Shown here: piece by piece, positions 1 to 20,190 of the stretch
Position numbering within the stretch: position 1 is the first letter of the stretch
Layout: each line of letters starts with the position of its first letter
Assembly: GCA_020848905.1 (NCBI GenBank)
Contig: JADLHG010000005.1
Location: 3,423-67,422 of the forward strand
Origin: Deltaproteobacteria bacterium
GTDB taxonomy: Bacteria > Myxococcota_A > Polyangia > GCA-2747355 > JADLHG01
Length of the DNA stretch: 64,000 bases
Direction of reading: 5' to 3'
Notes under the pieces: generated by a model
Seen by the model: only the letters and a program-made list of their open reading frames with translations
Database searches by the model: none
What the model was told of the DNA's origin: nothing
Made by a program: the position numbers and the translations under genes

Positions 1-2
1 CC

Positions 3-1100
3 AGCGCGGCGTGGGTCGGGACCTTCAACCGCGAGAAGAATCGCCGCGGCGCGAACCTCTTCTACAAGATCAACGGCGAGAGCGGAAAGATCGAGGCCTC
101 GGTCACGATGCCCGCGGGGCACAAGTCCTACGGCTGCATGGCCGATTCGAACCACATCATCTGGTCCACCGACATCTACGGCTCGCTGGCCTTCCTCTCC
201 ACGATCACCAACCAGGCGGGGCCGCTCCTCAAGGCGCCGTGGGTCCCCAAGGCCGGACGCGAGTACCACCACTACGGCATCACCGTCGACGGCGACCAGC
301 GCGTCTGGCTCGGCGGGTACCACTCGTCGTGGGTCCTCCGGTACGCGCCCAAGCGGGACAACTTCGACGCGCTCAGCAAGGGTGTCTGGACGCGCATCGA
401 CGTTCCCGACGGCTGGGTCACGCGCGGCATCGCGGCCGACAACCGCGGCAAGGTCTGGGTCGCCATCGAGTCGGGCGCGATTCTGCGGCTGGAGCAGAGC
501 ATCCCCGACGGCGTGCACGACATGACCGGCGTGAAGGAGGGCAAGGACTACTGGCCCATCGCGGCGCGCGAGGTGATCGGCGCGGGCATCGACCTGGCGG
601 GTCACATCTGGGGGGTGGGCAAGGACAACGACACCGCCGCGCGGCTCGACGTGGACGCGCAGGGCAACGTCGTCACGCCGGCGACGGGGAACACGAACAA
701 GGTCACCCTCGGACGCAACCCGTACACCTACAGCGACTTCACCGGCTACGGCCTGATGACCTTCCTCCGCCCGAACGGGCGATACGTCTACCACCACCAG
801 CCGTGCAAGGCCGGCGAGAAGGCGATCTGGCAGTCGGTGACCTGGAACGCCACCGCGCCTGCGGGCACCTCCGTCTCGGTGCGCGTGCGCACCGGGGACT
901 CCGAGGCCAGCATGGGCCCCTGGTCCGCGCCGTTCACCAGCTCGCCCGCCTTCTTCGGACCGGGCTCGCCGCGCGCGATCAGCCCGAATCCGTCGGCCGT
1001 CATGCACGTGGAGGTGAACCTCGCCAGCCAGATCAAGGACGTGACCCCCATCGTGCACGACTACACGGTCGGGTTCGTCTGCGTGGCCAAGACGGGCTAA
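3..1100 (+). CDS. hypothetical beta-propeller-like protein (5' partial, continues upstream of the window)
   Basis: The frame is open from position 3 with no stop and runs to TAA at 1098-1100. Codon third positions are GC-rich. The only family resemblance is a repetitive W/G-rich architecture suggestive of a beta-propeller. Confidence 0.55.
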   Translation, partial: SAAWVGTFNREKNRRGANLFYKINGESGKIEASVTMPAGHKSYGCMADSNHIIWSTDIYGSLAFLSTITNQAGPLLKAPWVPKAGREYHHYGITVDGDQRVWLGGYHSSWVLRYAPKRDNFDALSKGVWTRIDVPDGWVTRGIAADNRGKVWVAIESGAILRLEQSIPDGVHDMTGVKEGKDYWPIAAREVIGAGIDLAGHIWGVGKDNDTAARLDVDAQGNVVTPATGNTNKVTLGRNPYTYSDFTGYGLMTFLRPNGRYVYHHQPCKAGEKAIWQSVTWNATAPAGTSVSVRVRTGDSEASMGPWSAPFTSSPAFFGPGSPRAISPNPSAVMHVEVNLASQIKDVTPIVHDYTVGFVCVAKTG

Positions 1101-1209
1101 CGGCCCCGCCCGCTCGACGCCGCCGCGCAACGCCGCGCTTGTCATCGCCTGCCCGAGGGACCACAATCGGCCTCGCTTGGCCGCCGCACCCGCGCCCCAC
1201 GGAAGAGGA

Positions 1210-2118
1210 ATGCCGAAGAGCCTCCCCCCGGAGACCGATCCGTTCAGCCAGATGTTCGACCGCCGTGACCTGATCCTCGTCACGGGCAAGGGGGGTACGG
1301 GCAAGAGCACCCTCGTCGCCGCGCTGGCCGAGCTCGCCGCCCGGCGACGCGGCTCGGCGGTGGCCGTCGAGATGTCCGTGCACCCCCACCTGCCGGAGCT
1401 CCTCGGACCGAGCACCCAGGTCCAGACGGTCTGCGTCGACCTGGAGCAGGCCGTCCCGGCGGCGATGGGGCGTCTCCTCCGGCTGCCCGCGCTCGTCACG
1501 CGGGTCTTCAACAACCGCTTCATCCGGCTCTTCATTCGCACCTCGCCCGCGGTCCGCGAGATGATCCTGCTCGACGAGCTGCACCACCTCGTGGAGGTGA
1601 ACTCGCGCCGCAGAACACCGGTGATCGTGGACCTCCCGGCCTCGGGCCACGCGCTCTCCTTCCTCGACACCCCGCGCGCCGTCAACCGCATGCTGCGCGT
1701 CGGACCGCTGGCTCAGGTGGCGGCGCGCGTCGAGGCGCTGATTCTGGACAGCTCTCGCTGCGAGCTCGTGATCGTCGCGCTCCCCGAGGAGCTGCCGATC
1801 AACGAGACCATCGAGCTCGTCCGCCGCGCCACCGAGATCGGGCTCGCCAGCCGGACCGTGATCGTGAACCAGGTGCCCTCGCCGTCGGTGGATCCCGAGG
1901 ACCGCCCGCTGCTCGACCTCCTCCATCGAGAGGGAGACGCGCAGATCGGCCACTTCGCGAGCATCGCGCGCAGCGGGCTGGACGGCCTGGACCAAGCGCG
2001 CGCGCAGATCGAGCGGCTCCGCTCGGCGCTCGACGACGCCGTGATCGAGCTCCCCTTCCACCTCGACACCGACCCGCGTCGCCGGGTGGCCGCGCTCATC
2101 CGGGCGCTCGTCCCATGA
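1210..2118 (+). CDS. ArsA/GET3-family P-loop ATPase, half-size (first of a split pair)
   Basis: P-loop 'ILVTGKGGTGKST' near the N-terminus and an ArsA signature-like 'DLPASGHALSFLDTP'. ATG at 1210 follows GGAAGAGGA; an alternative TTG start at 1177 is possible. The stop overlaps the next start (ATGA at 2115-2118). Confidence 0.8.
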   Translation: MPKSLPPETDPFSQMFDRRDLILVTGKGGTGKSTLVAALAELAARRRGSAVAVEMSVHPHLPELLGPSTQVQTVCVDLEQAVPAAMGRLLRLPALVTRVFNNRFIRLFIRTSPAVREMILLDELHHLVEVNSRRRTPVIVDLPASGHALSFLDTPRAVNRMLRVGPLAQVAARVEALILDSSRCELVIVALPEELPINETIELVRRATEIGLASRTVIVNQVPSPSVDPEDRPLLDLLHREGDAQIGHFASIARSGLDGLDQARAQIERLRSALDDAVIELPFHLDTDPRRRVAALIRALVP

Positions 2119-3350
2119 CGGCCGCCGGCCTCAAGCAGGTGATCGACGGCGCGCCGCTCGTGGTTTGCGTCGGCCCCGGGGGCGTGGGCAAGACGACGCT
2201 CTCGGCCGTGCTCGCCCTGCACCAGGCGGCCACCGGCGCGCGCTCGCTCGTCCTCACCATCGACCCGGCCCGCCGGCTGGCGGACGCGCTCGACGTGCCC
2301 GGCCTGACCAACGACCCGGTCGCGATCAGCTCCTTCGGCAAGATGCACCCCGGCGGCACGCTCAGCGCGCTGATGCTCGACCCGTCGGCGACCTTCGACC
2401 ATCTGATCGCGCTGCTGGTCGCGGACCCCGACCGGCGACGCGCCCTGCTGGAAAACCGGACCTACCAGTACGTCTCGCGCTACCTCGCCGGAACGCTCGA
2501 ATACATGGCCGTGGAGCGCCTGCACGCGCTGACCCAGGGCGGCGCCTACGACCGGATCGTCCTCGACACGCCGCCCACGAGCAACGCCATCGACTTCCTC
2601 GAGGCCCCGGACCGCCTGGCGACCTTCTTCAGCGACCAGGTGATCAGCCGCTTCATGCCCAAGCAGCAGACCTCGTGGACCTCGCGGCTTCTCAACCGGG
2701 CCAGCTCATCGGTGCTCTCGCTCCTCAACCGCGTCGCCGGAGACACCTTCGTCGAGGACGTCGTCAACTTCGTCTCCACCTTCGGCGACCTCTTCGGCCA
2801 GTTCCGCGAGCGCGGCATCGCGGTGGGCAAGACCCTCCGCGACCCGCGCACGGCCTTCGTCATCGTCTGCGCCCCCGACCAGAACCGGCTCGCCGAGGCG
2901 CGTTCGATCGACGAGCGGCTCCAGCAGGCCGGCTGCCGGGCGCACGCCTTCATCGTCAACCGGGTCGACGCGCCCTTCCTCTCCACCCCCGGGGACGACG
3001 CGCTCGCCCGCGCCACGGTCCTCCTCGGGGGAGCGGCGGAGCGTCCGCGCGTCCAGGCCTTCATCGAGCGCCTCGAGCAGCTGCGACGTAGCTACGACTC
3101 CTCCGCCGCGACGCACGCGCAGGCGGTCGAGTCGCTCCGGGCCTACGCGGCGCCGCGGCCCGTCTTCACGGCCCCCCGCGTCCCCCCCGGCGAGAGCCCT
3201 CGCGCCGCGCTCCTGGCCCTCTACCTCGGCCTCTTCGCCGACACGACCGACACGACCGACGCGACCGCGGCGGGCGCGCCCCCCCCGCTCCCGCCCGACG
3301 ACGGAGCGCGCCGCTCGATTTTCGGTCGCCGTCGAACGGACCGGCCGTGA
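2115..3350 (+). CDS. ArsA/GET3-family P-loop ATPase (second of the split pair)
   Basis: P-loop 'VCVGPGGVGKTTL' and ArsA-like 'DTPPTSNAIDFLEAPDRL'. Start and stop are both coupled by 4-bp overlaps: ATGA with the upstream gene and GTGA with the downstream KAS III. Confidence 0.8.
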   Translation: MTAAGLKQVIDGAPLVVCVGPGGVGKTTLSAVLALHQAATGARSLVLTIDPARRLADALDVPGLTNDPVAISSFGKMHPGGTLSALMLDPSATFDHLIALLVADPDRRRALLENRTYQYVSRYLAGTLEYMAVERLHALTQGGAYDRIVLDTPPTSNAIDFLEAPDRLATFFSDQVISRFMPKQQTSWTSRLLNRASSSVLSLLNRVAGDTFVEDVVNFVSTFGDLFGQFRERGIAVGKTLRDPRTAFVIVCAPDQNRLAEARSIDERLQQAGCRAHAFIVNRVDAPFLSTPGDDALARATVLLGGAAERPRVQAFIERLEQLRRSYDSSAATHAQAVESLRAYAAPRPVFTAPRVPPGESPRAALLALYLGLFADTTDTTDATAAGAPPPLPPDDGARRSIFGRRRTDRP

Positions 3351-4408
3351 CCCTCTCGGCCAAGATCGAGAGCCTCGGCGTCTACCTGCCCGACAAGTCG
3401 CTCACCACCGAGGAGCTCCTCGGCGCCTGCCGGCACCGGCCGCGGCTCGACTTCGAGCGCATCACGGGCATCCACGAGCGCCGGGTCGCCGAGGGCGAGT
3501 ACTCGATCGACCTCGCGGTCAAGGCGGCCCAGCGCGCGCTGAAGATGTCGCGATACTCGGCCGAGGACCTCGACCTCTTGATCTGCACCAGCATCTCGAA
3601 GCACCACCGGCAAGACGAGTTCACCTTCGAACCGGCCACGGCCGTGCTGGTGCGCCGAGCCATCGGGGCCCGCAGAGCCCTCTGCTTCGACGTCGTGAAC
3701 GCCTGCGCCGGCATGCTCAACGGCATCTACGTGCTGCAGGGGATGCTGCGCAGCGGCGCCATCCGCTGCGGCATGGTCGTGAGCGGGGAGCAGAACATGC
3801 CGCTCGCCTGGACGGCCACGCGGGAGATCCGGCACCGCCTCGACCGGCAGCTCGCCTCGCTGTCGCTGGGCGACTGCGGCGCCGCGCTCATCCTCGACGG
3901 TGCGGAGGACGACGCGCGCGGCTTCCGTCACCTGGAGCTGATCACCGGGGCCAAGCACTCGCACTACTGCCACTCGCAGCCCTCGTCGCGCGGCTCCGGC
4001 GGCGTGCTGATCACCAAGGCCATCGGCCTGCAGCGCAAAGGGGCCGAGCACTTCCCCTTCTACTTCAAGGAGGCCGTGCACAAGAGCGGCTGGGGCCTGG
4101 AGGAGCTGGACCACATCATCCCGCACCAGGTCTCGGTGCGCGCCATCCGGCGCGGGATCAAGGAGGTCAGTCGCTTCATGGGCTGCGAGCTGCCCGACCG
4201 CTACCTCTGCTGCGCCGAGAAGTACGGCAACACGACCACCACCAGCCACTTCCTCGTGCTGCACGAGTTCATCCTCCGCGGCCAGATCCAGCCGGGGCAC
4301 AAGCTCCTCTTCGTCAGCGGCGCCTCGGGGATCGTGATCACCCATGCGACCTACGCCATGGACGACCTCCCCGACCGCTATCGCCGCGCGCAGGAAGCGG
4401 AGAGCTAA
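3347..4408 (+). CDS. 3-oxoacyl-ACP synthase III (FabH-like KAS III), catalytically complete
   Basis: Begins 'ESLGVYLPD...', typical of FabH. Catalytic Cys is in 'FDVVNACAGMLNG', His in 'IPHQVS' and Asn in 'YGNTTTTS'. GTG start at 3347 overlaps the upstream stop (GTGA). Confidence 0.85.
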   Translation: MTLSAKIESLGVYLPDKSLTTEELLGACRHRPRLDFERITGIHERRVAEGEYSIDLAVKAAQRALKMSRYSAEDLDLLICTSISKHHRQDEFTFEPATAVLVRRAIGARRALCFDVVNACAGMLNGIYVLQGMLRSGAIRCGMVVSGEQNMPLAWTATREIRHRLDRQLASLSLGDCGAALILDGAEDDARGFRHLELITGAKHSHYCHSQPSSRGSGGVLITKAIGLQRKGAEHFPFYFKEAVHKSGWGLEELDHIIPHQVSVRAIRRGIKEVSRFMGCELPDRYLCCAEKYGNTTTTSHFLVLHEFILRGQIQPGHKLLFVSGASGIVITHATYAMDDLPDRYRRAQEAES

Positions 4409-4409
4409 G

Positions 4410-5291
4410 ATGCTCCGTTGCCGCATGGCCAGCCTCGGGGCGAGCCTGCCGGGGCCCCGCTGGCGCCGCCGGGGCTCCCTCTGGCACGCACAGAAGGCGG
4501 GAAAGGAGTGCCTGGCCCGCTCGCCGTACCGACCCTCCGACGTCGAGGTGCTGATCAACACCGGCGTGAACCGCGACGGCCACACCTGCGAGCCGGCCAT
4601 CGCGACCTACGTGCTCAAGGCCCTGGGCATCAACACCGACTTCCGCGGGAGCCGGACGCTCGGCTTCGACCTGCTCAACGGCGGCTGCGGGATGCTGAAC
4701 GCCGCCCAGGTCCTCGCGACGTTGATGCAGAGCGGCCAGGCCCGGGTCGGGATGGTCGTCTCCAGCGAGGCGAACAGCGACCGCGACCCCGACCCTGCCT
4801 ATCGCTACCCGCCGAGCGGCGCGGCGGTGCTCCTCGACATCGCGCCCCTCTCCGGAACGGGCTTCGGCGCCTTCGCCTTCCGCACCCTCGACGAGCACGC
4901 GGACCTCTACTCCTCGGTGGTCAACATGACCGGGAAGCACGGACGCCTGCTGCTCCGTCGAAAGGACGAGCTCGACGCGGCCTATCGCCAGGGCGCCGCC
5001 GAGGTGGTCGAGGAGGTGCTCTCCCAGGGCCACCTGGCGCGAGATGACCTGGACCTCGTCATCCCCGCCCAGCTCTCGGGGCCCTTCCTCGCCGAGCTCC
5101 CGGCCGCCATCGGCCTGCCGCGCGAGAAGGTGCTCGACCTCTCCAGCGTCCTCGAGGACACCCTGACCACCTCGGTCTTTCTCGCCACGCACCACGCCCT
5201 CGAGACGGGCCGGGCGGGCCCCGGAAAGACCGCCCTGCTCCTGGCCTTCGGCTCCGGCGTGACGGTGGGAGCCGCCACCTACCGCTTCTGA
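4410..5291 (+). CDS. FabH-like (KAS III fold) protein lacking catalytic His/Asn, probable non-catalytic heterodimer partner
   Basis: Thiolase/FabH fold with Cys retained in 'LLNGGCGMLNAAQ'. 'IPAQLSG' replaces the PHQ motif and 'EDTLTTS' replaces GNT. It starts 2 nt after the upstream stop; an alternative start at 4425 is possible. Confidence 0.7.
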   Translation: MLRCRMASLGASLPGPRWRRRGSLWHAQKAGKECLARSPYRPSDVEVLINTGVNRDGHTCEPAIATYVLKALGINTDFRGSRTLGFDLLNGGCGMLNAAQVLATLMQSGQARVGMVVSSEANSDRDPDPAYRYPPSGAAVLLDIAPLSGTGFGAFAFRTLDEHADLYSSVVNMTGKHGRLLLRRKDELDAAYRQGAAEVVEEVLSQGHLARDDLDLVIPAQLSGPFLAELPAAIGLPREKVLDLSSVLEDTLTTSVFLATHHALETGRAGPGKTALLLAFGSGVTVGAATYRF

Positions 5292-5377
5292 GCGGCCCCC
5301 GGGTCGCCAAGGGGTGTGGTCGCCTGGCCCTCTCCGTGCTACCTCGTCCGGTGTAAACGCGGCGGACGGAGGGCTAG

Positions 5378-7519
<2,142 letters not shown>

Positions 7520-7703
7520 GCTCCGAAAAGGAACGCGCACTTCTTCTTTTGAATGGCCACGCGCATCGAGAGTGCGCGCGCGACGTCTCGATCCGCGAGC
7601 CATCTCCCCCGATTCGTGCGAGCGAAGCCGTTGTCACCGCCTGGCATGCTTGGTGCACCTAATCTTCCTGTTCTTGGGCAAGGGGAGTGCGGTGACCTTC
7701 AAC

Positions 7704-7864
7704 CAGAGCGTTGCGTAAGTTCGTTGGCAGTTGATTCGATGATGGTCCTTCCCAAACTCGGAACGCTCGCGTTCCCCCTCCATACCCCGACACTCACTCT
7801 CTATCGAGAGTAAACAACCGGTGCCTCCTCGCCGGAGCTGCCAACGAACTTATGCAGCGCTCTG
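7704..7864. repeat. 27-bp imperfect inverted repeats (25/27 match) flanking about 105 bp, with a nested palindrome, inside a 470-bp AT-richer intergenic region
   Basis: Left arm 7704-7730 'cagagcgttgcgtaagttcgttggcag'. Right arm 7838-7864 is its reverse complement with 2 mismatches. The internal palindrome is 'ggaacgctcgcgttcc'. Confidence 0.7.
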
Positions 7865-7989
7865 CTTCGCAGGGCGCTGCCGCGTCCGGAGGGGTGACCT
7901 CGTCTCGGGGACCCGCTCGCCCGGACCCCCTCCCGCGCAATCCCGATCGGCTATACTGCCTGCCACTTGAGAGACGAAGTGCGCACGCC

Positions 7990-9795
7990 ATGACCACCCG
8001 CAAGACCATCACCCAGCTCCTTCACGACCAGGCCGAGCGCTACGGCGATCGCGTGAGCCACTACCACTGGGAGCGCGGCCAGTGGCGCAGCATGACCTGG
8101 AGGCAGGTGCGCCAGGTCTCGCGCGAGGTGGCCTTCGGGCTCTGGAGCCTGGGCTGCCGCAAGGGGGACAAGGTCGGACTCGTCAGCGAGACCCGCTGGG
8201 AGTGGACCTGCATCGACGGCGGGTGCCTCGGCTTCGGCGCGGTCGTGGTGGGCATCTACCCGACGAGCACCCCCGAGCAGGTGGCCTACATCCTCGCGCA
8301 CAGCGAAGCGAAGGTGGTCTTCGTCGAGAACGCGGCCCAGCTCGCCAAGCTGAACGAGCTCCGCGATCGCTTCCCCGCGCTCCAGGCCGTGGTGGTGATC
8401 GATCCGCCCGACGGCGGCAAGCCCGACGGGTGGTTGACCCTCGAGGGCCTGCGCGAGAAGGGACGCGCGCTGGAAGGACAGGAGCCGGCGCTCCTCGACC
8501 GCGCGCGCGAGGCCGTGCTCCCCGAGGACGTGGCCACGCTGGTCTACACCAGCGGCACGACGGGCCCGCCCAAGGGGGTCGTCTGCACCCATCGCGCCTT
8601 CTTCGACATCGCGGACCTGAGCGTGCGGCACCTCGGCTTCGGCGACGAGGACGTGAGCGTGGTCTTTCTGCCCCTCGCCCACTCGCTCCAGCGCGTCAGC
8701 CTCTACGGCGGGGTGCGCGCGGGGATGACCGGCTACTACGCGCCGAGCCTCGACCGCCTGATGGAGACAGTCCAGGCCGCGCGGCCCACCACCATGGCCA
8801 GCGTGCCGCGCATCTTCGAGAAGGTGCACAGCCGGATCGTGACCGGGCTGGCTCAGCAGCCCGAGCGGCGGCGCAAGCTCTTCACGGCCGCGATGAAGGT
8901 CGGTCGAGCCCGGAGCCGCTGTCTGCAAGAGAGGCGCCCCGTCCCCCTGCACCTGCGCCTCGGCTACGCGCTCTTCGACCGGCTGGTCTTCAGCAAAGTC
9001 CGCGCGCGCCTCTTCGGCCCGCGCCTGCGCTTCCTCGTCTCGGGGGGCGCGCCGATCAGCCGCGAGCTGCTCGAGTTCTTCCACGCCATGGGGATCCTGA
9101 TCCTCGAGGGCTACGGCCTGACCGAGACGAGCGCCCCGGCCACCGTGAATCACCCCGACGACTTCCGCTTCGGGACGGTGGGCAAGGCGCTCAAGGGGGT
9201 GGGGATCAAGATCGCCCCCGACGGGGAGATTCTGATCAACGGTCCCGGACTCTTCCGCGAGTACTACAAGGATCCGGCCGCCACGCGCGAGGCGATCGAC
9301 GAAGAGGGGTGGTTCCACTCGGGCGACATCGGCGAGCTGGACGCCGACGGCTTCTTGCGCATCACCGACCGCAAGAAGGACCTGATCATCACCGCGGCCG
9401 GCAAGAACGTGGCCCCGCAGAACATCGAGAACCTGATCAAGACCGACCGCCACATCAGCCAGGTGATGGTGCACGGCGACCGCCGGAACTACCTCGTAGC
9501 GCTCGTGACCCTCGACGCCGACGAGCTGGCCGCCTGGGCCAAGTCGAACGGCAAGGCCGGGGCGCGCCTCGAGCAGCTCGCAGCAGACCCGGCGGTCCAG
9601 GGACTCGTGGCGAAGATCATCGACGAGAAGAACGCGCAGCTCGCCCGGTACGAGACGGTGAAGAAGTTCCGCGTGCTGGCGGAGGACTTCACCGTCGAGA
9701 ACGGCATGCTCACGCCGACCATGAAGGTCAAGCGCCGGGTGATCGAGAAGAGGTACCGGAGCCTGCTCGACGAAATGTACGGGGAAGGAGGGTAG
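7990..9795 (+). CDS. long-chain fatty-acid--CoA ligase (AMP-binding, FadD-like)
   Basis: AMP-binding motif 'LVYTSGTTGPPKGV' and 'GYGLTETS'. The ATG at 7990 is the first Met after the intergenic region. Confidence 0.85.
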   Translation: MTTRKTITQLLHDQAERYGDRVSHYHWERGQWRSMTWRQVRQVSREVAFGLWSLGCRKGDKVGLVSETRWEWTCIDGGCLGFGAVVVGIYPTSTPEQVAYILAHSEAKVVFVENAAQLAKLNELRDRFPALQAVVVIDPPDGGKPDGWLTLEGLREKGRALEGQEPALLDRAREAVLPEDVATLVYTSGTTGPPKGVVCTHRAFFDIADLSVRHLGFGDEDVSVVFLPLAHSLQRVSLYGGVRAGMTGYYAPSLDRLMETVQAARPTTMASVPRIFEKVHSRIVTGLAQQPERRRKLFTAAMKVGRARSRCLQERRPVPLHLRLGYALFDRLVFSKVRARLFGPRLRFLVSGGAPISRELLEFFHAMGILILEGYGLTETSAPATVNHPDDFRFGTVGKALKGVGIKIAPDGEILINGPGLFREYYKDPAATREAIDEEGWFHSGDIGELDADGFLRITDRKKDLIITAAGKNVAPQNIENLIKTDRHISQVMVHGDRRNYLVALVTLDADELAAWAKSNGKAGARLEQLAADPAVQGLVAKIIDEKNAQLARYETVKKFRVLAEDFTVENGMLTPTMKVKRRVIEKRYRSLLDEMYGEGG

Positions 9796-9798
9796 ACG

Positions 9799-10854
9799 AT
9801 GCTTCACCTGACGACCTTGACCTCGTTCCGGCGGGCCCGGACCCTCGCGGCCCAGCTGCCCCCCTTGGGCGCGCGCTTCGGCGTGCGCGGCTGGGAGCAG
9901 GTCCAGCGGGACCTCGCGACCGTGGTCCGCGGCTGGCTCCACGGCGAGCACTTCCAGTTCGACGTGCGCTCGGCCGGACTCATTCGCCCGGACCTCTCGC
10001 TCCCTACCTACGCCGGCCTGGTGCCCGAAGGGGGGCTCGCGCCGATCTACAACCTCCTCGACCGCACGGGCGGCGCCACGCTCTACACCACCCGCGTCAG
10101 TCGAGGTCGCGCCCGCGACTTCCGCGGCGGTCGCCTCTCGTACGACGACCACCGTGGGACGGACTTCGTGACCCCCGTGGGCATGCCCATCGTGGCGGCG
10201 GCGCCGGGGATCGTGGCGCTCGTGCGCGACCGCTGGCTGCGCGGCGGGCTCACGCTCTCCGTCGACCACGGCCACGGCGTCGTGACGCAGTACTCGCATC
10301 TGTCGCAATCGCTGGTCGAGCTCGGCCAGATCGTGCGCCGCGGCGAGCCCATCGCGCTCGGCGGCGCGTCGGGCTACGACCTCGTGCAGTTCTTCCCCTA
10401 CGTCCCGCCGCACGTGCACTTCATGGTCTGGATGGACGGCCAGCCGGTGGATCCCTTCCTCGCCCCCGGCGAAGCGCCCCGCCCCGGCTGCTGGTGCGAG
10501 GAGAACCGGCCGCTCCCCAGCGGGCCGCTCCCCGACGACCCCCTCCCCGAGGCGAGCCCGGTGGACGAGCTCGCGCTCGAACGCATTACTTCCGCCTGCA
10601 TCGACCCGCTGCTGCGCGAGGAGCTCGCGCAGGCCGCCGCGAGCCCGGTTTCCCTCGCGGCGCTGCTCGAGGACGCGCTGCACCACCAGTTCGAGTCCTG
10701 GCCGCAGGCCTTCTGGCACGAGCGGGTGCGACCGCCGCTCGACCCCGACCGGGCCGCGCGCGCGCTGCGAGTGCGGATCAGCCTGCCGCTACCGTCGAGC
10801 GAGTACACGGGGGCCCGCTTTGCCGACGCCCCCTGGACGGCACCTCCCGCGTGA
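9799..10854 (+). CDS. M23 family metallopeptidase (LytM domain)
   Basis: 'HRGTDF...', 'SVDHGHGVVTQYSHL' and 'PHVHF' fit HxxxD/HxH zinc-ligand motifs. RBS GGAGGG precedes the ATG, which lies 3 nt after the fadD-like stop. Confidence 0.8.
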   Translation: MLHLTTLTSFRRARTLAAQLPPLGARFGVRGWEQVQRDLATVVRGWLHGEHFQFDVRSAGLIRPDLSLPTYAGLVPEGGLAPIYNLLDRTGGATLYTTRVSRGRARDFRGGRLSYDDHRGTDFVTPVGMPIVAAAPGIVALVRDRWLRGGLTLSVDHGHGVVTQYSHLSQSLVELGQIVRRGEPIALGGASGYDLVQFFPYVPPHVHFMVWMDGQPVDPFLAPGEAPRPGCWCEENRPLPSGPLPDDPLPEASPVDELALERITSACIDPLLREELAQAAASPVSLAALLEDALHHQFESWPQAFWHERVRPPLDPDRAARALRVRISLPLPSSEYTGARFADAPWTAPPA

Positions 10855-11474
10855 GGCGCGCGCCGGCGCTGGCCCTCGCGCCCCTCGCCCTCCTGCCGCT
10901 CCCCGCCGCGGCTCGACCGCTCCTCGAGCTGCCGCTCCGCGTGCGCGTGGCCGAGTGCGCCGGTCAGGCCGTGAAGCCACCCGGCTGGATCGCCGCCCAC
11001 GTGGCTGCCGCAAATCAGGTCTTGCGCCCCCACGGGGTGCGGCTGGCGGCGCGACTGGACCGCTTCCGGCCTCCGCGCTGCGGCCTGACGGACAGGGACG
11101 ATCGCCACGCCCTCGCCCGCTTCGTCGACCCGCAGGAGGTGACGGTGCTGGTGCTCGAGCGCGTGCGCGACCTGGACCTGACGACCTACGATCTGATGGG
11201 CGTGCACTGGCGCTACGAGGGGTCCGACGCCGCCCTCGCGGGTCGCCGGTGGATCTTCCTCACGGCCCGCGCCGAGCCGCCCGTCCTGGCCCACGAACTC
11301 GGACACTACCTCGGCCTCGCGCACGACCCGCGCGGCGGCAACCTGATGACTCCCGGACCCTCGGCCCCGATCTGGCGCCGCCCGGGGAGAAAGCCCCTCC
11401 CCTTCGCGCCGCGCTTCACCGCGGCCCAGGGTCGCCGCGTGCGCAAGGCGGTGGCCGCGCTGCTCGGCCGCTGA
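10851..11474 (+). CDS. small secreted metzincin-like zinc peptidase (HExxHxxGxxHD)
   Basis: GTG start overlaps the M23 stop (GTGA). N-terminal signal peptide 'RRAPALALAPLALLPLPAAA'. Zinc motif 'HELGHYLGLAHD'. Confidence 0.65.
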   Translation: MRRAPALALAPLALLPLPAAARPLLELPLRVRVAECAGQAVKPPGWIAAHVAAANQVLRPHGVRLAARLDRFRPPRCGLTDRDDRHALARFVDPQEVTVLVLERVRDLDLTTYDLMGVHWRYEGSDAALAGRRWIFLTARAEPPVLAHELGHYLGLAHDPRGGNLMTPGPSAPIWRRPGRKPLPFAPRFTAAQGRRVRKAVAALLGR

Positions 11475-11668
11475 CTGACCTGGCACCCTGCGGACCGGTC
11501 AGCGGAGACGCCACCTCGAGCCCCCCGAGGAGCCGTTTTCAGCACTTGTTGTAAGCAAGATCCATAACTTACACGGCATCTTGGCGTGGCATGGGCAGTG
11601 CAAACGGGAGGCGTCAGTCCGCAGCCGCGCCGGCGCGCACGCGCGCCGACGCCAGGAGGAGGTCGTTC

Positions 11669-12544
11669 ATGAGCCGTCACGCCGTCGCATGCCTCGGGAT
11701 CTCCGCCTGCCTCCTGGCAGGCGCCACGAGCACCGCCTGGGCCGCCGACAGGACTCGCGCCGTAGCGGACGCCCGCGTGGTTCGGGACTACGGCAACATC
11801 CGGCGCTACGTCGGCAAGCTCGGCAGCGGCCGGATGAGCCACGAAGCCAAGCAGCGCTTCCTCGCTACCGTCGAGGTCCTCTACAAGAACCGGGACGGCT
11901 CGTTCAAGGATCGCGACCACGCCCCGACCGTGCGCTTCGCGGGCGGCTCCGGGATCGGCCTGATGGGGATGCTGAAGAAGATCGTCTTCGGCGCACCGAG
12001 CAAGATGGAGATCTCCTCGCACGAGAACCGCGTGCGCGCCGAGGGACCGTTCCCCGCCTTCATCGGCACGGAGCCCCAGATGGCCGCGGTCGACGGAACG
12101 CTCGCGCAGCTCGCCGAGCGCGTGGGTCGCGCGGCCGCTCCGGATCAGCGCTCGCGCATGGGCCTCGTCATCGGCGATGCCCTTCGCGCGGCTCGCGTGA
12201 ACGGTCCTCTCGCCGGGCTGGCGGCCGCCTACGCCACGGCCGCGACGATTCGCTCCACCCAGGACGGCGCCTCCCTCATCGGCGTCATCGAGGTGCAGGA
12301 TGCCGGTCGTCGCGGGGCGCTCGGCGCCGCGATGAAGGTCCTCGAGCGCGAGCATCGCGGCTTCGTGGACCCGAAGGCCGCGCTCACCGTGGTCGAGACG
12401 ACCTGGCTGTGGAAGAACACCGCCATCGGACGGCCCAGCATCGGCACTCAGGACGTGACCCTGAAGGACGGCACCACGCACTCCACCTTCCAGTACTACA
12501 GTGCCGGCGCGGACGGCGCGCTCTTCTGGACGAACGGCCGCTGA
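11669..12544 (+). CDS. secreted hypothetical protein
   Basis: ATG follows AGGAGGA. Signal peptide 'MSRHAVACLGISACLLAGATSTAWAAD'. GC3-rich frame; no family recognised. Confidence 0.55.
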   Translation: MSRHAVACLGISACLLAGATSTAWAADRTRAVADARVVRDYGNIRRYVGKLGSGRMSHEAKQRFLATVEVLYKNRDGSFKDRDHAPTVRFAGGSGIGLMGMLKKIVFGAPSKMEISSHENRVRAEGPFPAFIGTEPQMAAVDGTLAQLAERVGRAAAPDQRSRMGLVIGDALRAARVNGPLAGLAAAYATAATIRSTQDGASLIGVIEVQDAGRRGALGAAMKVLEREHRGFVDPKAALTVVETTWLWKNTAIGRPSIGTQDVTLKDGTTHSTFQYYSAGADGALFWTNGR

Positions 12545-12562: not shown

Positions 12563-13885
12563 TCAGAGCAGGATCAGCTCGATCCCCGAGAACATACCAA
12601 AGACGTGTCCCCCGACGTCGCTCCCCTGCACCGAGCGCGTCACGTACCAGAGCTCCTGTACCGAGAGGTCGAGGTGGAGCCAGCCCGGGATGACCCCCCA
12701 GGGGCGCAGGAAGCTCGCGCGCGCGCCGAGCGCGAAGGTGTGGCGGTCGCAGTCGTAGGTCGGCAGGTCGGTCGATCGGATCGGCGAGCGCTCGAAGGAG
12801 TACCCCGCGCGCCCCGTGAGCCACGAGACGAGCTTGTACTCGGCACCGACGCGCGGGACGAGCATGTCGGTCCAGCGGATCTGCGGCTTGAGCGGGTCGA
12901 GGAGCTTCGCGTTGGGGCCGAGGAAGAGCCGGAGCCCGGGGTCCTTGGCGAGCTGCTCGATGTCGAGCGAGATCTTGGGGTACGGGATCTCGAAGTTGGT
13001 GTAGTCCACCCAGGTCAGATCGGCCGAGACGAGGAGCCGCCGCCCGCGATACGACACCCCGAGGCTGACCTGCTGCGGATGGTACTTCGAACGGATCGTC
13101 GCCTTCGCCTTGACGGGCATGTTGATCTTCGTCGTGTCGGAGACCGAGAGCCGCGTGTACAGATCGAGGGGGAGCTCGACGGAGACGAACTGCGGACCGC
13201 GGTAGGTCGCGCCGATGCGGAAGCGCCCGAGGAAGGCCATCGCCCCGCCGGTGAAGAAGGCGTCGGTCGGCACGTCGGCGTTCATCCAGGCTTCGAGCCG
13301 CAGGTCGGGGTCGGCCGCGCCTCCCCCTCCGCCACCCGGCTGGAAGGGGGCGTAGAAGCTGACCGCGCCGTAGACCGCTCCGGCGAGCTGGAGTCCGGCG
13401 CCGAACGCCAGCCAGCGCAGGGGTCGCCACGGAACGCGGCCCCCGAAACCCACGCGCAGCTGAAAGACCTGCACCGCCGAGTCGTACATCACGAAGTAGG
13501 GCTCGCTCTTCTGATAGAGCCGCGACTCGAAGAGCTTGCCGGTGGGCAGGTTCAGCGAGAAGCCGAAGGCCAGGTACTCCTTGAGTCGGCCCGAGAGGGG
13601 CAAGCCGAGGTGCAGGTAGGTCGAGGTCTCGGTGGGCATCCCGACGCTCGCCCCGTTCTCGACGAGCCGCGGAGCCCCGAGGAGAAAGCCCGCCCCGATG
13701 GTCATCCCCTGGAGCTGCACCAGCCCGGCGGGGTTGTAGTAGAGCGCCGCGACGTCCTCGGCCACGGCGGTGTACGCGCCCCCGAGCCCCATCGAGCGCG
13801 GGTGCATGCCGAAGTGGCTCGCCAGGTCGGCCCGGGCGGTATGGGCCGCGAAGAGCAGCCCCAGAACGACGGGTACACGACGCAC
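12563..13885 (-). CDS. outer-membrane transport protein of the FadL/OMPP1/TodX family
   Basis: Family N-terminal motif 'GLGGAYTAVAEDVAALYYNPAGL'. GTG start at 13885 is preceded by AGGGAGG, and the signal peptide is 'RRVPVVLGLLFAAHTARA'. Confidence 0.8.
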   Translation of the reverse strand: MRRVPVVLGLLFAAHTARADLASHFGMHPRSMGLGGAYTAVAEDVAALYYNPAGLVQLQGMTIGAGFLLGAPRLVENGASVGMPTETSTYLHLGLPLSGRLKEYLAFGFSLNLPTGKLFESRLYQKSEPYFVMYDSAVQVFQLRVGFGGRVPWRPLRWLAFGAGLQLAGAVYGAVSFYAPFQPGGGGGGAADPDLRLEAWMNADVPTDAFFTGGAMAFLGRFRIGATYRGPQFVSVELPLDLYTRLSVSDTTKINMPVKAKATIRSKYHPQQVSLGVSYRGRRLLVSADLTWVDYTNFEIPYPKISLDIEQLAKDPGLRLFLGPNAKLLDPLKPQIRWTDMLVPRVGAEYKLVSWLTGRAGYSFERSPIRSTDLPTYDCDRHTFALGARASFLRPWGVIPGWLHLDLSVQELWYVTRSVQGSDVGGHVFGMFSGIELILL

Positions 13886-13896
13886 GGGAACCTCCC

Positions 13897-14643
13897 TCAC
13901 TTGCCCTTGGCGGGTACGTACTGGACCTCGTCGCTGAGCTCGCTCTGCGTCGCTCGACGAAAGGCCTGTACGGCGAAGTAATAGGTGCGGCCCGGAACCA
14001 GGCCTTGCAGACGAAGTCGCGGGCGCATGGCCGGCGTCGGAGAGGGGACGTCGCCCGCGTCGGTGTAGCTCGGTACCCGATCCAGACACCAGGCCTCGGG
14101 GACCTCGAGCGGCGACGCGGCGGGCATACCGGGCAGTCGCCCCGGCTGCGCAGCGGAGCTGTCCTTCGCTCCCGCATCCCGGGGTGTTCCATCGGAGCGA
14201 GCGTCGCTTGCACCGAGGTCCACGCGGCCATCGCGCGCTCCGCCGTCCTGCGACCGCCCGTCGCGCGACGTGCCGTCTCGGGGTCCCGCGTCGCGCGGGC
14301 CGTCCGGCAGCCGCAGATCGGCCGCGATGGTCGTCGTGGGGCCGATGCTGCCGTCGAAGTCGCCGCAGCCCGTCGGCCACGCTACCCAGGAGAGTCCGCG
14401 CCCCTCGTAGGGGACCCCCGCGCGATCGTCGTCGAAATGCAGCCGATAGCCGTCCACGCGCACCACGAGCTTCCAGGAGAGCTCCACCGTTCCCGGCGCC
14501 GCCCCTACGACCGGCGCCACCACCAGCTCCGTGGGTTTGGGCAAGGGGATCGTCTCGCTGCATCCCGCGATCCCGACGAGCGCGAGCAAGACCGCGCCTC
14601 CGGCTGCCTCGCGAGCTCCCCCGCTTGCTGCGTGTCTTTTCAT
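13897..14643 (-). CDS. hypothetical lipoprotein, co-oriented immediately upstream of the FadL-family gene
   Basis: Signal peptide with lipobox 'LLALVGIAGCS'. The stop is 12 nt before the FadL-family start. Confidence 0.55.
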   Translation of the reverse strand: MKRHAASGGAREAAGGAVLLALVGIAGCSETIPLPKPTELVVAPVVGAAPGTVELSWKLVVRVDGYRLHFDDDRAGVPYEGRGLSWVAWPTGCGDFDGSIGPTTTIAADLRLPDGPRDAGPRDGTSRDGRSQDGGARDGRVDLGASDARSDGTPRDAGAKDSSAAQPGRLPGMPAASPLEVPEAWCLDRVPSYTDAGDVPSPTPAMRPRLRLQGLVPGRTYYFAVQAFRRATQSELSDEVQYVPAKGK

Positions 14644-17650: not shown

Positions 17651-18583
17651 TCACCCTGGCGTCTGGTACGGCATCTTCGCCCAGTAGGCGTAGAAGCCGT
17701 CGTCCGCCTTCCTCCAGCCGGCCGCCACCTCCGGCAGGTTCTCCTCGAGCCACCGCACGAAGTGCGGCCGGGTTCCGTCTGCGTCGTTGACGCCGTACTC
17801 CTCGGCGAGGTCCCAAGACGCGAACACCCGACCATTCTTCTGCGCCACGTCCGGGTCACCGGCGAGGGCAGCTACGCACCGGCCGACGAAGAGCGGCGTC
17901 TCCGAGGCGATGAACTCCTTCACCTTCGTCGCGGCGTCGCGCCAGTTCGCTTCGGTGACGCCGAAGTGATCGAGCATCCACTCCGAGCGGAGGAAGCCCG
18001 GCGTCACGGCCACCGCGGGGATGCCGCGCTCCTTCAGCTCCTGCGAGAGCGCGAAGGCCATGCGGATGACCGTGGTCTTCACGAGGTCGTAGAAGAAGTG
18101 CCCCCGGTAGAAGAAGGCGTCGCCGTCGGTGATCTCGACGACGAGACCGCCCGGCCGCAGGCGCGGCAGCCCGTAGTAGCTAGTGATGATGTGCGTCTTG
18201 ATCGCGCGGTCGATGAGCAGGAGACCATCCTCGAGCTTCGTCTCCCAGAGCTTCTTGCCCCACTCGACGAGATCGTCGCCGCCCCAGATGTCGTTCACGA
18301 GGATGTCGAACTCGCCGACGCGCTCGAACAGACTCGCAACCTCTGCCGGAACCGTGTGGTCGACCCGGAGGGCGATCCCGCGGCCGCCACGCGCGGTCAC
18401 GAGCTCGGCCGTCTCGTTGATCGTCTCCGGACGGTTCCTCATGCCCGGGCTGCCGGGAACGCTCCGGCCGGTGCAGTAGACCGTCGCCCCAGCCTCACCG
18501 AGTGCGGTGGCGATCCCACGCCCGGCTCCGCGGGTCGCGCCGGCGACGACGGCAACCTTCCCTTCGAGGTGCAAGGAGGTCAT
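17651..18583 (-). CDS. SDR-family oxidoreductase
   Basis: Rossmann motif 'GKVAVVAGATRGAGRGIA' in a 310-aa protein. ATG at 18583 overlaps the xseA stop (ATGA). The long upstream extension of this ORF in the six-frame track is a GC-driven artefact. Confidence 0.8.
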   Translation of the reverse strand: MTSLHLEGKVAVVAGATRGAGRGIATALGEAGATVYCTGRSVPGSPGMRNRPETINETAELVTARGGRGIALRVDHTVPAEVASLFERVGEFDILVNDIWGGDDLVEWGKKLWETKLEDGLLLIDRAIKTHIITSYYGLPRLRPGGLVVEITDGDAFFYRGHFFYDLVKTTVIRMAFALSQELKERGIPAVAVTPGFLRSEWMLDHFGVTEANWRDAATKVKEFIASETPLFVGRCVAALAGDPDVAQKNGRVFASWDLAEEYGVNDADGTRPHFVRWLEENLPEVAAGWRKADDGFYAYWAKMPYQTPG

Positions 18584-20178
18584 GTGTCCGCGCCAGCCCC
18601 CTCGTCCTCGTCGGCCGCATGGACCTCCGTCACCGTGCAACCCAGTCGACCTCGGTGCAGCCGCACCGTCAGCGCTTCCCCCACCGCCAGCGAACCGGCC
18701 TCGCGCACCACAGTGCCTCGCGCATCCTGCACCACGCTGTAGCCGCGCCCGAGCACGGCGAGGGGACTCAGCGCGTCCAGACTCGCCGCGAGCTGGCCGA
18801 GGCGCCGCCGACGGGGCTCGAGCAGTCTTTCCCCCATGAGCTCCAGCGCCGCGACGAGCTGCTCGAGGCGTCTCCGGCGCGGCTCGAGCGCGCGTTCGGC
18901 CGCGGCCTCGAGGCGCGCCGCGACCTCCACCAGCGTCGCGCGGTCCCGGGCGAGTCGCACCCGCGGCTGCTGCGCCTCGAGCCGCAGACGCAGGCCCCCG
19001 AGCTCCCCCTTCTGCCGCGCGAGGCGGCGGGTGAGCAGCGTCTCGAGCCGCCCCGCGAGCTCGTCGAGGAGCTGTCGCTCGCGATTCAGTCGCTGCGCCG
19101 GAGTGCCGAGCCGCCGCAGCGCCCGCTCGAGCGCGAAGTTCGCGTCCGTCAGGCGCTGGCGCAGCGCGCGCCCGAGGCGCACCCCCAGGACCTCGAGCTG
19201 CGCCTCGAGCTCCGCGAGCACCGGCACCGCCATCTCCGCCGCCGCCGACGGCGTGGGGGCCCGCAGGTCGGCCACCCAGTCGGAGATGGTCACGTCCACC
19301 TCGTGCCCCACCGCCGAGATGCACGGGGTGCGCAGCGCGAAGATCGCGCGCGCCACCTCCTCGGTGTTGAAGGCCCAGAGGTCCTCGAGGCTCCCCCCAC
19401 CGCGCCCGCAGATGATGAGGTCCGCGCCGAGCGCATCCGCGCGCCCGAGCGCCGCCACGAGCTCGGCCGGCGCCTCGACCCCCTGCACGGCCGTCGGGCA
19501 GACCACCACCCGCACCGGGCAGCGCGTGTGCAGGACGCGCAGGATGTCCTGCAGCGCCGCTCCCGTCGGCGAGGTGACCACCGCGATGGTCCGCGGCAGG
19601 AGCGGCAGGGGCTTCTTGTGCCGCGCCTCGAAGAGCCCCTCGGCCTCGAGCCGCCGCTTGAGCTGCTCGAAGGCCAGCTGGAGCGCACCGAGTCCGCACG
19701 GCTCCGCCAGGTCCGCTAGGAGCTGAAACTTCCCCTGCGCCTCGTAGATGCTGAGCCTCCCGCGGAGCCTCAGGCTCTGGCCGTCCTCGAGCTTGAAACG
19801 CAGCCGCGAGATCGCCGACCGGAACATGGTCACCGAGAGCTGCGCCCCCGCGTCCTTCAGGGTGAAGTAGGCGTGCCCCGAGCTCGGCACGCGCAGGTTC
19901 GAGACCTCCCCCTCGACCCAGACCTGCGGGTACTCGCGCTCGAGCTGCCGCGAGACGCGCTGCACGAGCTCGCTGACGGTGTAGATGTGCGGCTCGGCTG
20001 GCGCCTCCACGGGCTCGGCTTGGACCGCGACGACCTCGGAGTGCGCCTCCACGGGCTCGGCTGGCGCGACCGCCGGCGCCGAGAGCTCCGGCGACGGCAC
20101 CCTCACCCGCTCGAACCCGAACGCGCCCTGCGCCGGTCCCTCGGAGTCCGCCCCCTTGCCGCGCCCCCGCCCCGCCAT
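18580..20178 (-). CDS. xseA: exodeoxyribonuclease VII large subunit
   Basis: An OB-fold N-terminal region 'IYTVSELVQRVSRQLEREYPQVWVEGEVSN' is followed by the catalytic region and a C-terminal coiled coil. Confidence 0.9.
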   Translation of the reverse strand: MAGRGRGKGADSEGPAQGAFGFERVRVPSPELSAPAVAPAEPVEAHSEVVAVQAEPVEAPAEPHIYTVSELVQRVSRQLEREYPQVWVEGEVSNLRVPSSGHAYFTLKDAGAQLSVTMFRSAISRLRFKLEDGQSLRLRGRLSIYEAQGKFQLLADLAEPCGLGALQLAFEQLKRRLEAEGLFEARHKKPLPLLPRTIAVVTSPTGAALQDILRVLHTRCPVRVVVCPTAVQGVEAPAELVAALGRADALGADLIICGRGGGSLEDLWAFNTEEVARAIFALRTPCISAVGHEVDVTISDWVADLRAPTPSAAAEMAVPVLAELEAQLEVLGVRLGRALRQRLTDANFALERALRRLGTPAQRLNRERQLLDELAGRLETLLTRRLARQKGELGGLRLRLEAQQPRVRLARDRATLVEVAARLEAAAERALEPRRRRLEQLVAALELMGERLLEPRRRRLGQLAASLDALSPLAVLGRGYSVVQDARGTVVREAGSLAVGEALTVRLHRGRLGCTVTEVHAADEDEGAGADT

Positions 20179-20190
20179 CGTCCGGACGCC

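Follow-up and report, generated by a model that had tools for sequence, protein, structure and literature searches.

Why should two half-size ATPases of the Get3/ArsA superfamily be packed into one block with a pair of proteins related to β-ketoacyl-acyl carrier protein (ACP) synthase III (KAS III)? The question is raised by a 64,000-nt stretch of contig JADLHG010000005.1 (assembly GCA_020848905.1, Deltaproteobacteria bacterium, Myxococcota), referred to here as the window, in which four tightly packed genes, designated A1, A2, K1 and K2, occupy positions 1210–5291 (+) within a region of about 70% G+C:

1210–2118 (+), A1: BagA-like half of a Get3/ArsA-superfamily, very probably heterodimeric ATPase, 302 aa; the open reading frame (ORF) opens at TTG 1177
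2115–3350 (+), A2: BagB-like half of the same predicted ATPase, 411 aa; ATGA overlap with A1
3347–4408 (+), K1: putative catalytic, LstA/OleA-like subunit of the KAS III family, 353 aa; GTGA overlap with A2
4410–5291 (+), K2: truncated, triad-less LstB/NltB-like partner subunit, 293 aa

The answer that we favor, at a probability of roughly 0.55, is that A1 and A2 form a dedicated BagAB-type ATPase assisting a pathway to 2-alkyl-3-oxo or 2-alkyl-3-hydroxy long-chain acids, by a mechanism that we infer and set out below. Each of the two modules is already known, and their recurrent pairing in one Myxococcota lineage appears to be undescribed. An earlier reading of this DNA, made from the letters only (the sequence-only reading), had likewise known of no characterized system in which the two modules are joined, and a limited literature search found no paper on such a pairing.

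Identity of the condensing pair and the ATPase pair

In Pfam, K1 matched ACP_syn_III together with ACP_syn_III_C and K2 matched ACP_syn_III_C alone, and the top NCBIfam match of K1 was PRK09258 (6e-41). K1 has the motifs NACAG, PHQ and GNT; its Cys, His and Asn were invariant in 56 of 56 orthologues, and its Glu was found in 55 of them. K2, about 60 residues shorter and with a mean column identity of 67% in the homologue alignment, has Gly or Ala, then Ala, Pro or Ser, then Asp at the triad positions across orthologues; in the window protein a Cys stands one position past the triad site, where many relatives have Val. Glu61 of K2, in a CEPA motif, was invariant (60/60) and was kept in distant actinobacterial homologues too. 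The Glu of K1 lies in a FEPATA motif that aligned with the LEPSTAS segment of OleA from Xanthomonas campestris, at a position where FabH proteins have Phe, and Glu in place of that Phe is a feature of both K1 and K2. We take the LEPSTAS segment to hold the Glu117 base of OleA.

These features match the published descriptions of LstAB (lipstatin) and NltAB (nocardiolactone). LstA has a C128/H271/N305 triad, and LstB and NltB are truncated, triad-less proteins with an essential Glu (E60 and E57, respectively). The subunits are inactive singly and active as a heterodimer only, and neither is soluble alone, LstA and NltA being reported as insoluble when expressed by themselves. According to Zhang, Zhang and Liu (2019), the heterodimer converts two acyl-CoAs to a 2-alkyl-3-oxo acid in a non-decarboxylative reaction. 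The pair in the window shares with LstAB and NltAB adjacent genes, an A-type subunit with Cys-His-Asn and a truncated, triad-less B-type subunit with Glu near residue 60 (K2 E61, LstB E60, NltB E57), and in most related loci an OleD/LstD/NltD-type reductase gene stands beside the pair. On the strength of the K1 triad, the truncated triad-less K2 and the match of Glu61 to E60/E57, the assignment of K1/K2 as an LstAB/NltAB-type split OleA-like thiolase is well supported by sequence, with the likeness to Lst and Nlt judged from published descriptions. By analogy, the pair would carry out a head-to-head condensation of acyl-CoAs.

The sequence-only reading had recognized two KAS III-like partners, one of them triad-less, and K2 is indeed without the His and Asn on alignment. 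Its comparison with PqsBC and with dialkylresorcinol (DarB)-type enzymes has to be replaced, as LstAB/NltAB is closer, with a Glu from the 'dead' subunit. A PqsBC-type KAS III heterodimer was rejected as the identity of the pair in view of a weak PqsC match, no PqsB among the matches of K2 and no pqs-type neighbors.

LstB counterparts have been reviewed as widespread and always clustered with LstA, and the K2 alignment, used as a profile against the full library, returned 400 clusters (50% identity) at E<=1e-30. A K2-like domain was C-terminal in many proteins of 660–700 aa, which matched in two stretches and have a size consistent with fused K1-K2, and also in proteins of 1200–3900 aa, many of which were found in this search; a direct K1K2 fusion of 679 aa occurs at locus L151.

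The ATPase genes both matched Pfam ArsA_ATPase (A1 4.8e-14, A2 8.6e-25). The top NCBIfam model was BagA for A1 (NF053622, 73 bits, below the cut-off of 400) and BagB for A2 (NF053621, 243 bits, below the cut-off of 521). In the PDB, the best match of A1 was 6bs3_A, that is Rv3679 (2.7e-14, vs. 4.7e-5 for Rv3680), and the best match of A2 was 6bs3_B, Rv3680 (2.2e-48, vs. 2.2e-9 for Rv3679). A1 and A2 are thus adjacent single-domain genes in the BagA-like/BagB-like order, each closest to its own mycobacterial counterpart, and their BagAB-type Get3/ArsA-superfamily identity is well supported by these matches. Because the scores lie below the NCBIfam BagA and BagB cut-offs, A1 and A2 are, as judged from these models, homologues of the BagAB type and not equivalogs or orthologues of the mycobacterial proteins. 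The sequence-only reading had proposed two single-domain ATPases of the ArsA/Get3 clade, not of the ParA/MinD/NifH kind, and the Pfam, NCBIfam and PDB matches agree with this; the nearest kin are BagA and BagB (Rv3679/Rv3680, 6BS3) and not ArsA or GET3 as it had supposed.

The two halves differ in their nucleotide-binding motifs. A DxPxxGHxxxFL motif had been attributed to each half; it is present in A1 alone (DLPASGHALSFL), and its counterpart in A2, DTPPTSNAIDFL, is without GH. The A1 motif GKGGTGKS and the GH were invariant in 21 of 21 orthologues. The signature Lys is missing from the A2 Walker A, GPGGVGKTT; the A2 Walker Lys was invariant (30/30), as was the Switch-I Asp of DPAR. A1 has thus retained both the signature Lys and the GH switch motif; A2 has neither of these but has the Switch-I Asp. 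The same asymmetry is found in the mycobacterial pair, which likewise consists of two adjacent genes in the same order with one Get3/ArsA-like domain each. GKGGTGKST occurs in both A1 and Rv3679; the Walker A of A2 and Rv3680 (GPGG/GAGGVGKTT) lacks the signature Lys; and A2 has DTPPTSN and Rv3680 DTPPSRN, within a DTPPxxN(A)xDFL motif lacking the GH of the DTAPTGH type. The Asp of DPA(R/K)R and the Walker Lys are kept in A2. The differences are that A1 is distant from Rv3679, that both halves fall below the equivalog cut-offs, and that the genes here belong to a dedicated paralogue clade within a lipid-condensation cassette, whereas mycobacterial bagA and bagB are not known to adjoin condensing-enzyme genes.

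PDB entries 6BS3–6BS5 hold both Rv3679 and Rv3680 chains, that is, a solved heterodimer. A fused A1-A2 chain of 675–720 aa was found in about 10 homologue clusters and at loci L067, L069 and L147. From the solved homologue 6BS3, the natural A1-A2 fusions and the ATGA overlap, A1 and A2 very probably form a heterodimer by analogy. In the C-terminal region of A2 (3180–3350, residues ~356–411), a hydrophobic stretch, ALLALYxGLF, which the family conserves at or close to the C-terminus, could be a membrane- or partner-binding element; in the window protein, about 45 additional residues form a low-complexity tail with much Thr, Asp, Pro and Arg.

With ArsA and Get3 (TRC40), A1 and A2 share the P-loop fold, the deviant Walker A and the dimer or pseudodimer logic, and some relatives carry A1-A2 as one ArsA-like chain. 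In contrast, the halves are strongly asymmetric, the ArsA model TIGR04291 was far from being reached (A1 39 bits, A2 51 bits, cut-off 650), as was the Get3 model TIGR00345 (46 and 82 bits, cut-off 135), no ArsB or Acr3 gene was present among the genes flanking the block, and no CxxC motif was visible in the A1 or A2 sequence. An ArsA arsenite-pump ATPase (score, no ArsB/Acr3) and a Get3/TRC40 tail-anchor targeting factor (score, no CxxC) were rejected as identities on these grounds.

The cassette around K1K2 and its linkage to the ATPase genes

A genome scan with the K2 profile gave 60 loci, in metagenome-assembled genomes (MAGs) labeled Myxococcales/Deltaproteobacteria, Holophagales, Thermoanaerobaculia, Aminicenantes, Gemmatimonadota, Rokubacteria, Neomarinimicrobiota and others, together with a small number of actinomycete and planctomycete loci that were about 30% identical. 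K1 lay directly 5' of K2 at every locus with upstream DNA. At about 35 of the 60 loci, a 330-aa reductase of the 3-β-hydroxysteroid dehydrogenase (HSD) family immediately preceded K1 or, at loci with an A1A2 insertion, A1; its top NCBIfam match was OleD, 2-alkyl-3-oxoalkanoate reductase (1.8e-58; 198.5 bits where the cut-off is 580). Upstream of the reductase, about 20 loci had a highly conserved 565-aa AMP-binding, FadD-like ligase. The best matches of the AMP-binding enzyme of related cassettes were long-chain fatty-acid-CoA ligases (498 bits) and, in the PDB, CoA ligases; the OleC-type model was absent from its 25 best NCBIfam matches, and no OleC-type β-lactone synthetase gene was found in the window. 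A full β-lactone (Ole/Lst/Nlt) pathway was rejected since the AMP-binding partner is of the CoA-ligase type.

This cassette can be set against the known pathways. With OleABCD it shares the thiolase fold, the K1 Glu aligned with LEPSTAS, and OleD as the best family for the reductase of the relatives; it differs in that OleA is a homodimer, in which Glu117 acts from the partner chain, whereas catalytic and Glu-donor subunits are split here, in that no OleB or OleC is present, and in that the OleD match is below its cut-off (198 vs. 580). From Lst and Nlt it differs by the absence of an OleC/LstC/NltC-type β-lactone synthetase, with a fatty acyl-CoA ligase-like AMP-binding enzyme instead, by the absence of a nonribosomal peptide synthetase (NRPS) or formyltransferase, and by its hosts, not actinomycetes but uncultured Myxococcota, Acidobacteriota and others; an ATPase partner is not reported for Lst or Nlt in the literature found. 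The actinobacterial pairs in the same scan (Streptomyces, Kitasatospora, Mycobacterium) were 38–40% identical to K1 and 27–33% to K2. Two actinobacterial loci, L055 and L057, were discarded as Lst/Nlt comparators, being NRPS-fused and polyketide synthase-associated cassettes and not lst/nlt clusters; L055, from Mycobacterium sp. GA-2829, has a 1775-aa ORF (5486–10813, +) with NRPS condensation, adenylation and thiolation domains plus LstA-like and LstB-like domains. In the Acidobacteriota locus L062, a HpnL-like/LPG_synthase_TM flippase-like membrane protein (6038–7159, +) precedes ligase-K1-K2 in a cassette without the reductase.

A1-A2 was present in 9 of the 60 K2 loci, all Myxococcota-type, inserted between the reductase and K1. 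In its window form or rearranged, the block was found in at least 11 distinct related loci, a recurrence beyond chance, and the expectation of the sequence-only reading that the four genes are syntenic in related genomes was borne out. Among close A2 homologues (identity >=57%), five layouts of the link were seen:

Layout 1: [ligase]-reductase-A1-A2-K1-K2
Layout 2: A1-A2-K1-K2 (the window, L064, L050)
Layout 3: A2-K1-K2-[144-aa membrane protein]-A1 (L149, L011)
Layout 4: reductase-K1K2 (fused)-A1-A2 (L151)
Layout 5: reductase-A1A2 (fused), with K1K2 not nearby (L069, L147)

All linked A2 proteins fell into one clade of a neighbor-joining tree, with the unlinked clade L066, L148 and L152 as its sister, and a single MAG held both types (L011 linked, L148 unlinked). 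The linked clade comprised 15 distinct loci, 11 of them K1K2-adjacent, 2 adjacent to the reductase only and 2 with neither on the contig. As five layouts keep the link and the linked clade stands beside an unlinked paralogue clade, with both in one MAG, the pattern is that expected for a paralogue recruited to the pathway and argues against hitch-hiking; we regard the functional link between A1A2 and the cassette as moderately supported. All-against-all ORF clustering of 14 linked loci gave no conserved gene family beyond the six pathway genes, a membrane or tail-anchored client included; the other recurring clusters were opposite-strand or out-of-frame ORFs overlapping pathway genes, of the spurious kind expected in high-GC DNA.

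The first alternative to be weighed is adjacency without shared function, in which A1A2 would be a general housekeeping BagAB-like ATPase whose gene order was kept through common ancestry. BagAB-like pairs are widespread and their neighbors mostly unrelated: distant BagB-like genes (35–47% identity) nearly always followed a BagA-like gene, and K1K2 was adjacent in 0 of 80 metagenome loci of such pairs. Two close relatives are unlinked, and K1K2 is found without A1A2 in most phyla. Chance inheritance of gene order would have to account for a link that persists through five or more gene orders, among them one with A1 and A2 on either side of K1K2 and one in which A1A2 adjoins just the reductase, for a linked clade whose sister is a clade of unlinked paralogues, the two types occurring together in one MAG, and for the overlaps of start and stop codons in the window. 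We therefore consider this alternative improbable, though a live one.

Several observations weigh against a dedicated ATPase of a 2-alkyl-3-oxo/hydroxy acid pathway. The two unlinked relatives, L067 and L150, belong to the linked clade and have neither K1K2 nor the HSD gene on the contig, and the tree that defines this clade is without support values. K1K2 with the HSD and ligase genes but without A1A2 occurs in Acidobacteriota, Aminicenantes, Gemmatimonadota, other phyla and the Myxococcota MAG L044; therefore, the ATPase is dispensable for the chemistry and would be a lineage-specific accessory. No orthologue of the OleD-like reductase or of the FadD-like cassette ligase was found in the 64-kb window, so that the full pathway is not in view there. 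Lastly, FabH structures (4.9e-23) stood slightly above OleA (5.1e-18) among the PDB matches of K1.

Neighboring genes and gene starts

Conserved neighbors of the block are the OleD-like reductase and the FadD-like ligase of related genomes. The sequence-only reading had identified the flanking genes of the window correctly (a weak propeller, DUF255, a FadD11-like ligase and FadL/TodX), but they are not conserved partners, as the DUF255, FadD11-like ligase, M23 peptidase and FadL/TodX genes accompany the block in L064 alone, a contig 93–97% identical to the window that ends at the same upstream gene as precedes A1 here. This preceding gene (108–1100) is weakly propeller-like and has no detectable similarity to the Tricorn/PD40 genes flanking other A1A2 pairs; an alternative long upstream ORF (11–1273) was set aside as being without a family match. 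Two further genes not conserved with the block are the FadL/TodX-type outer-membrane protein at 12563–14563 (−) (Toluene_X, 1.2e-11) and, at 17651–20668 (−), an ORF of 1005 aa that carries a short-chain dehydrogenase domain in its C-terminal part.

Around the linked clade and its relatives, other genes recur. The sister clade (L066, L148, L152) always lies beside a divergent α/β hydrolase, on the opposite strand upstream of A1, and a large Tricorn/PD40 protease-like gene; in L066 a GDSL lipase is just downstream of A2. In L147, a PfaD-family enoyl reductase of polyunsaturated fatty acid/polyketide synthases (10105–11715, +; TIGR02814, 627 bits, above the cut-off) directly follows the fused A1A2 (8001–10043), with the OleD-like reductase 0.9 kb upstream, giving another lipid-pathway neighbor of the linked A1A2 clade. 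The FadD11-like long-chain acyl-CoA ligase of the window (7852–9795, +) lies within 8 kb of the BagAB-like pair, and such ligases also lie at most 8 kb from BagAB-like pairs in L065 (3828–5630), L072 (51–1754), L083 (10590–12341, −) and L146 (15655–17460, −), four distant and otherwise unrelated loci, with 40–43% identity among the ligases and the AMP-binding_C_3 domain confirmed for the window and L065 copies; this recurrence may reflect an association. A protein of about 144 aa, with about four hydrophobic segments by eye, directly follows K2 in L149 (11101–11535) and L011 (~10891–11295), and a homologue (30% identical) follows K2 in L018 of Neomarinimicrobiota (10901–11314), a locus devoid of A1A2; this small protein may be a membrane partner of K1K2. 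The closest relative after L064 is L001, with reductase-A1-A2-K1-K2 at 66–77% identity and 73% G+C. L001 is labeled as a planctomycete ('Phycisphaera mikurensis' MAG), whereas its gene relatives are labeled Myxococcales/Deltaproteobacteria, and the bin label may be wrong.

The gene starts were assigned as follows. A Shine-Dalgarno-like GGAAGAGGA lies directly 5' of ATG 1210, and the 302-aa product is found both in public annotation (P0241, 100% identity) and on the near-identical contig L064; A1 therefore likely starts at ATG 1210. The public protein P0121 is 100% identical to A2. The K2 start was placed at 4410, and not at that of the longer ORF from 4344, because most of 120 homologues have a length of 293 aa. 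Direct reading of the junctions gave ccATGAcg at 2115 (A1/A2) and ccGTGAcc at 3347 (A2/K1). The coupled four-gene block of the sequence-only reading thus holds for these two overlaps, but the K1 stop TAA (4406–4408) is separated from the K2 ATG (4410) by a gap of 1 nt. An 86-nt spacer follows K2. One further feature was noted upstream:

1139–1167 (+), promoter-like site TTGTCA-17-CACAAT: consensus match within the 109 nt that separate A1 from the preceding gene

This was the sole sigma-70-like match in positions 1–8000, with 0.2 expected from shuffles, and the consensus match makes it a weak candidate promoter.

Proposed mechanism and its meaning for the BagAB family

Considering the results above, we propose a plausible model. 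The block would be co-transcribed and co-translated to give two asymmetric heterodimers. K1 would supply the Cys-His-Asn site, into which the Glu61 base of K2 would reach, and K1K2 would, by analogy with LstAB, NltAB and OleA, make a 2-alkyl-3-oxo acid from two fatty acyl-CoAs through a non-decarboxylative, head-to-head condensation. In related genomes, the adjacent OleD-like reductase would convert this product to a 2-alkyl-3-hydroxy ('mycolic-like') acid, and the FadD-like ligase would be the source of the acyl-CoAs; in the window organism, the genes of these two enzymes, if they exist at all, would lie outside the 64 kb. A1A2 would form an asymmetric ATPase dimer like Rv3679/Rv3680, as 6BS3 and the natural fusions suggest, and one paralogous ATPase clade would have become dedicated to the condensation pathway in the Myxococcota lineage. 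The dimer may then handle, at the expense of ATP, a strongly hydrophobic client, be it a long-chain (C20–C40) product or intermediate or the aggregation-prone K1K2 enzyme, and may couple cytosolic condensation to membrane delivery. This handling mechanism is speculative; it is suggested by the Get3-type superfamily, by the insolubility of LstA and NltA alone and by the lack of a conserved protein client near the block. Lipid-related neighbors also recur near other BagAB-like pairs, namely FadD11-like ligases, a GDSL lipase, α/β hydrolases and the PfaD enoyl reductase.

A wider proposal is put forward tentatively and at long odds: bacterial Get3 homologues of the BagAB type would chaperone lipids or lipid-making enzymes, and not tail-anchored proteins, and the dedicated paralogue described here would receive the extremely hydrophobic 2-alkyl-3-oxo/hydroxy acid from the LstAB-type synthase and pass it to the membrane using ATP.

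A protein client would be the choice suggested by superfamily membership, with A1A2 inserting or targeting, in the manner of Get3, a tail-anchored or small membrane protein such as a lipid exporter or acceptor. The 144-aa hydrophobic protein between K2 and A1 in L149 and L011, with its homologue after K2 in L018, and the CcsA-like membrane proteins near the block in L061, L003 and L149 are in keeping with such a client. The 144-aa protein, however, looks multi-pass rather than tail-anchored and is present without A1A2 in L018; no membrane or tail-anchored family is conserved across the linked loci, none adjoins the block in the window, and neither half has the Get3-model score (46 and 82 vs. 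135 bits) or a visible CxxC. A protein client is thus distinctly unlikely.

PqsBC is a KAS III heterodimer with one dead subunit, and K1 has FabH structures as its top PDB matches, with PqsD and PqsC among the others. It is very improbable, even so, that K1K2 is a decarboxylative FabH/PqsBC-like ketosynthase that uses malonyl-ACP or a different activated acid to prime synthesis of the fatty-acid or alkylquinolone type, as both subunits have Glu and not the FabH Phe at the OleA LEPSTAS segment, the K2 Glu is invariant (60/60) and matches the essential E60/E57 of LstB/NltB, the commonest neighbor is an OleD-like 2-alkyl-3-oxoalkanoate reductase, the PqsC match (2.5e-9) is far behind FabH and OleA, and no ACP, malonyl transferase or anthranilate gene was conserved near the block by ORF clustering of the linked loci.

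If A1A2 assists the pathway to 2-alkyl-3-oxo/hydroxy acids, the pairing offers a concrete route to what BagAB-type ATPases act on. BagAB (Rv3679/Rv3680) is reported to protect Mycobacterium tuberculosis from glycerol and nitric-oxide toxicity, and its molecular client is not stated in the accessible literature, even for this species. With a structure and clear M. tuberculosis phenotypes at hand, the linkage to the cassette makes the question of the client, condensing enzyme or long-chain product, directly testable. Should the lipid-chaperone reading be true, the BagAB family would have its first molecular client, and lipid handling would suggest itself as the root of the phenotypes seen in mycobacteria. 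Furthermore, the split OleA enzymes of the LstAB type, which have to date been studied in β-lactone pathways of actinomycetes, are a large family. In uncultured Myxococcota, Acidobacteriota, Aminicenantes and Gemmatimonadota, K1K2 goes together with a CoA ligase and an OleD-like reductase, with no β-lactone synthetase, and the distribution of this cassette points to an uncharacterized class of 2-alkyl-3-hydroxy ('mycolic-like') lipids in those phyla.

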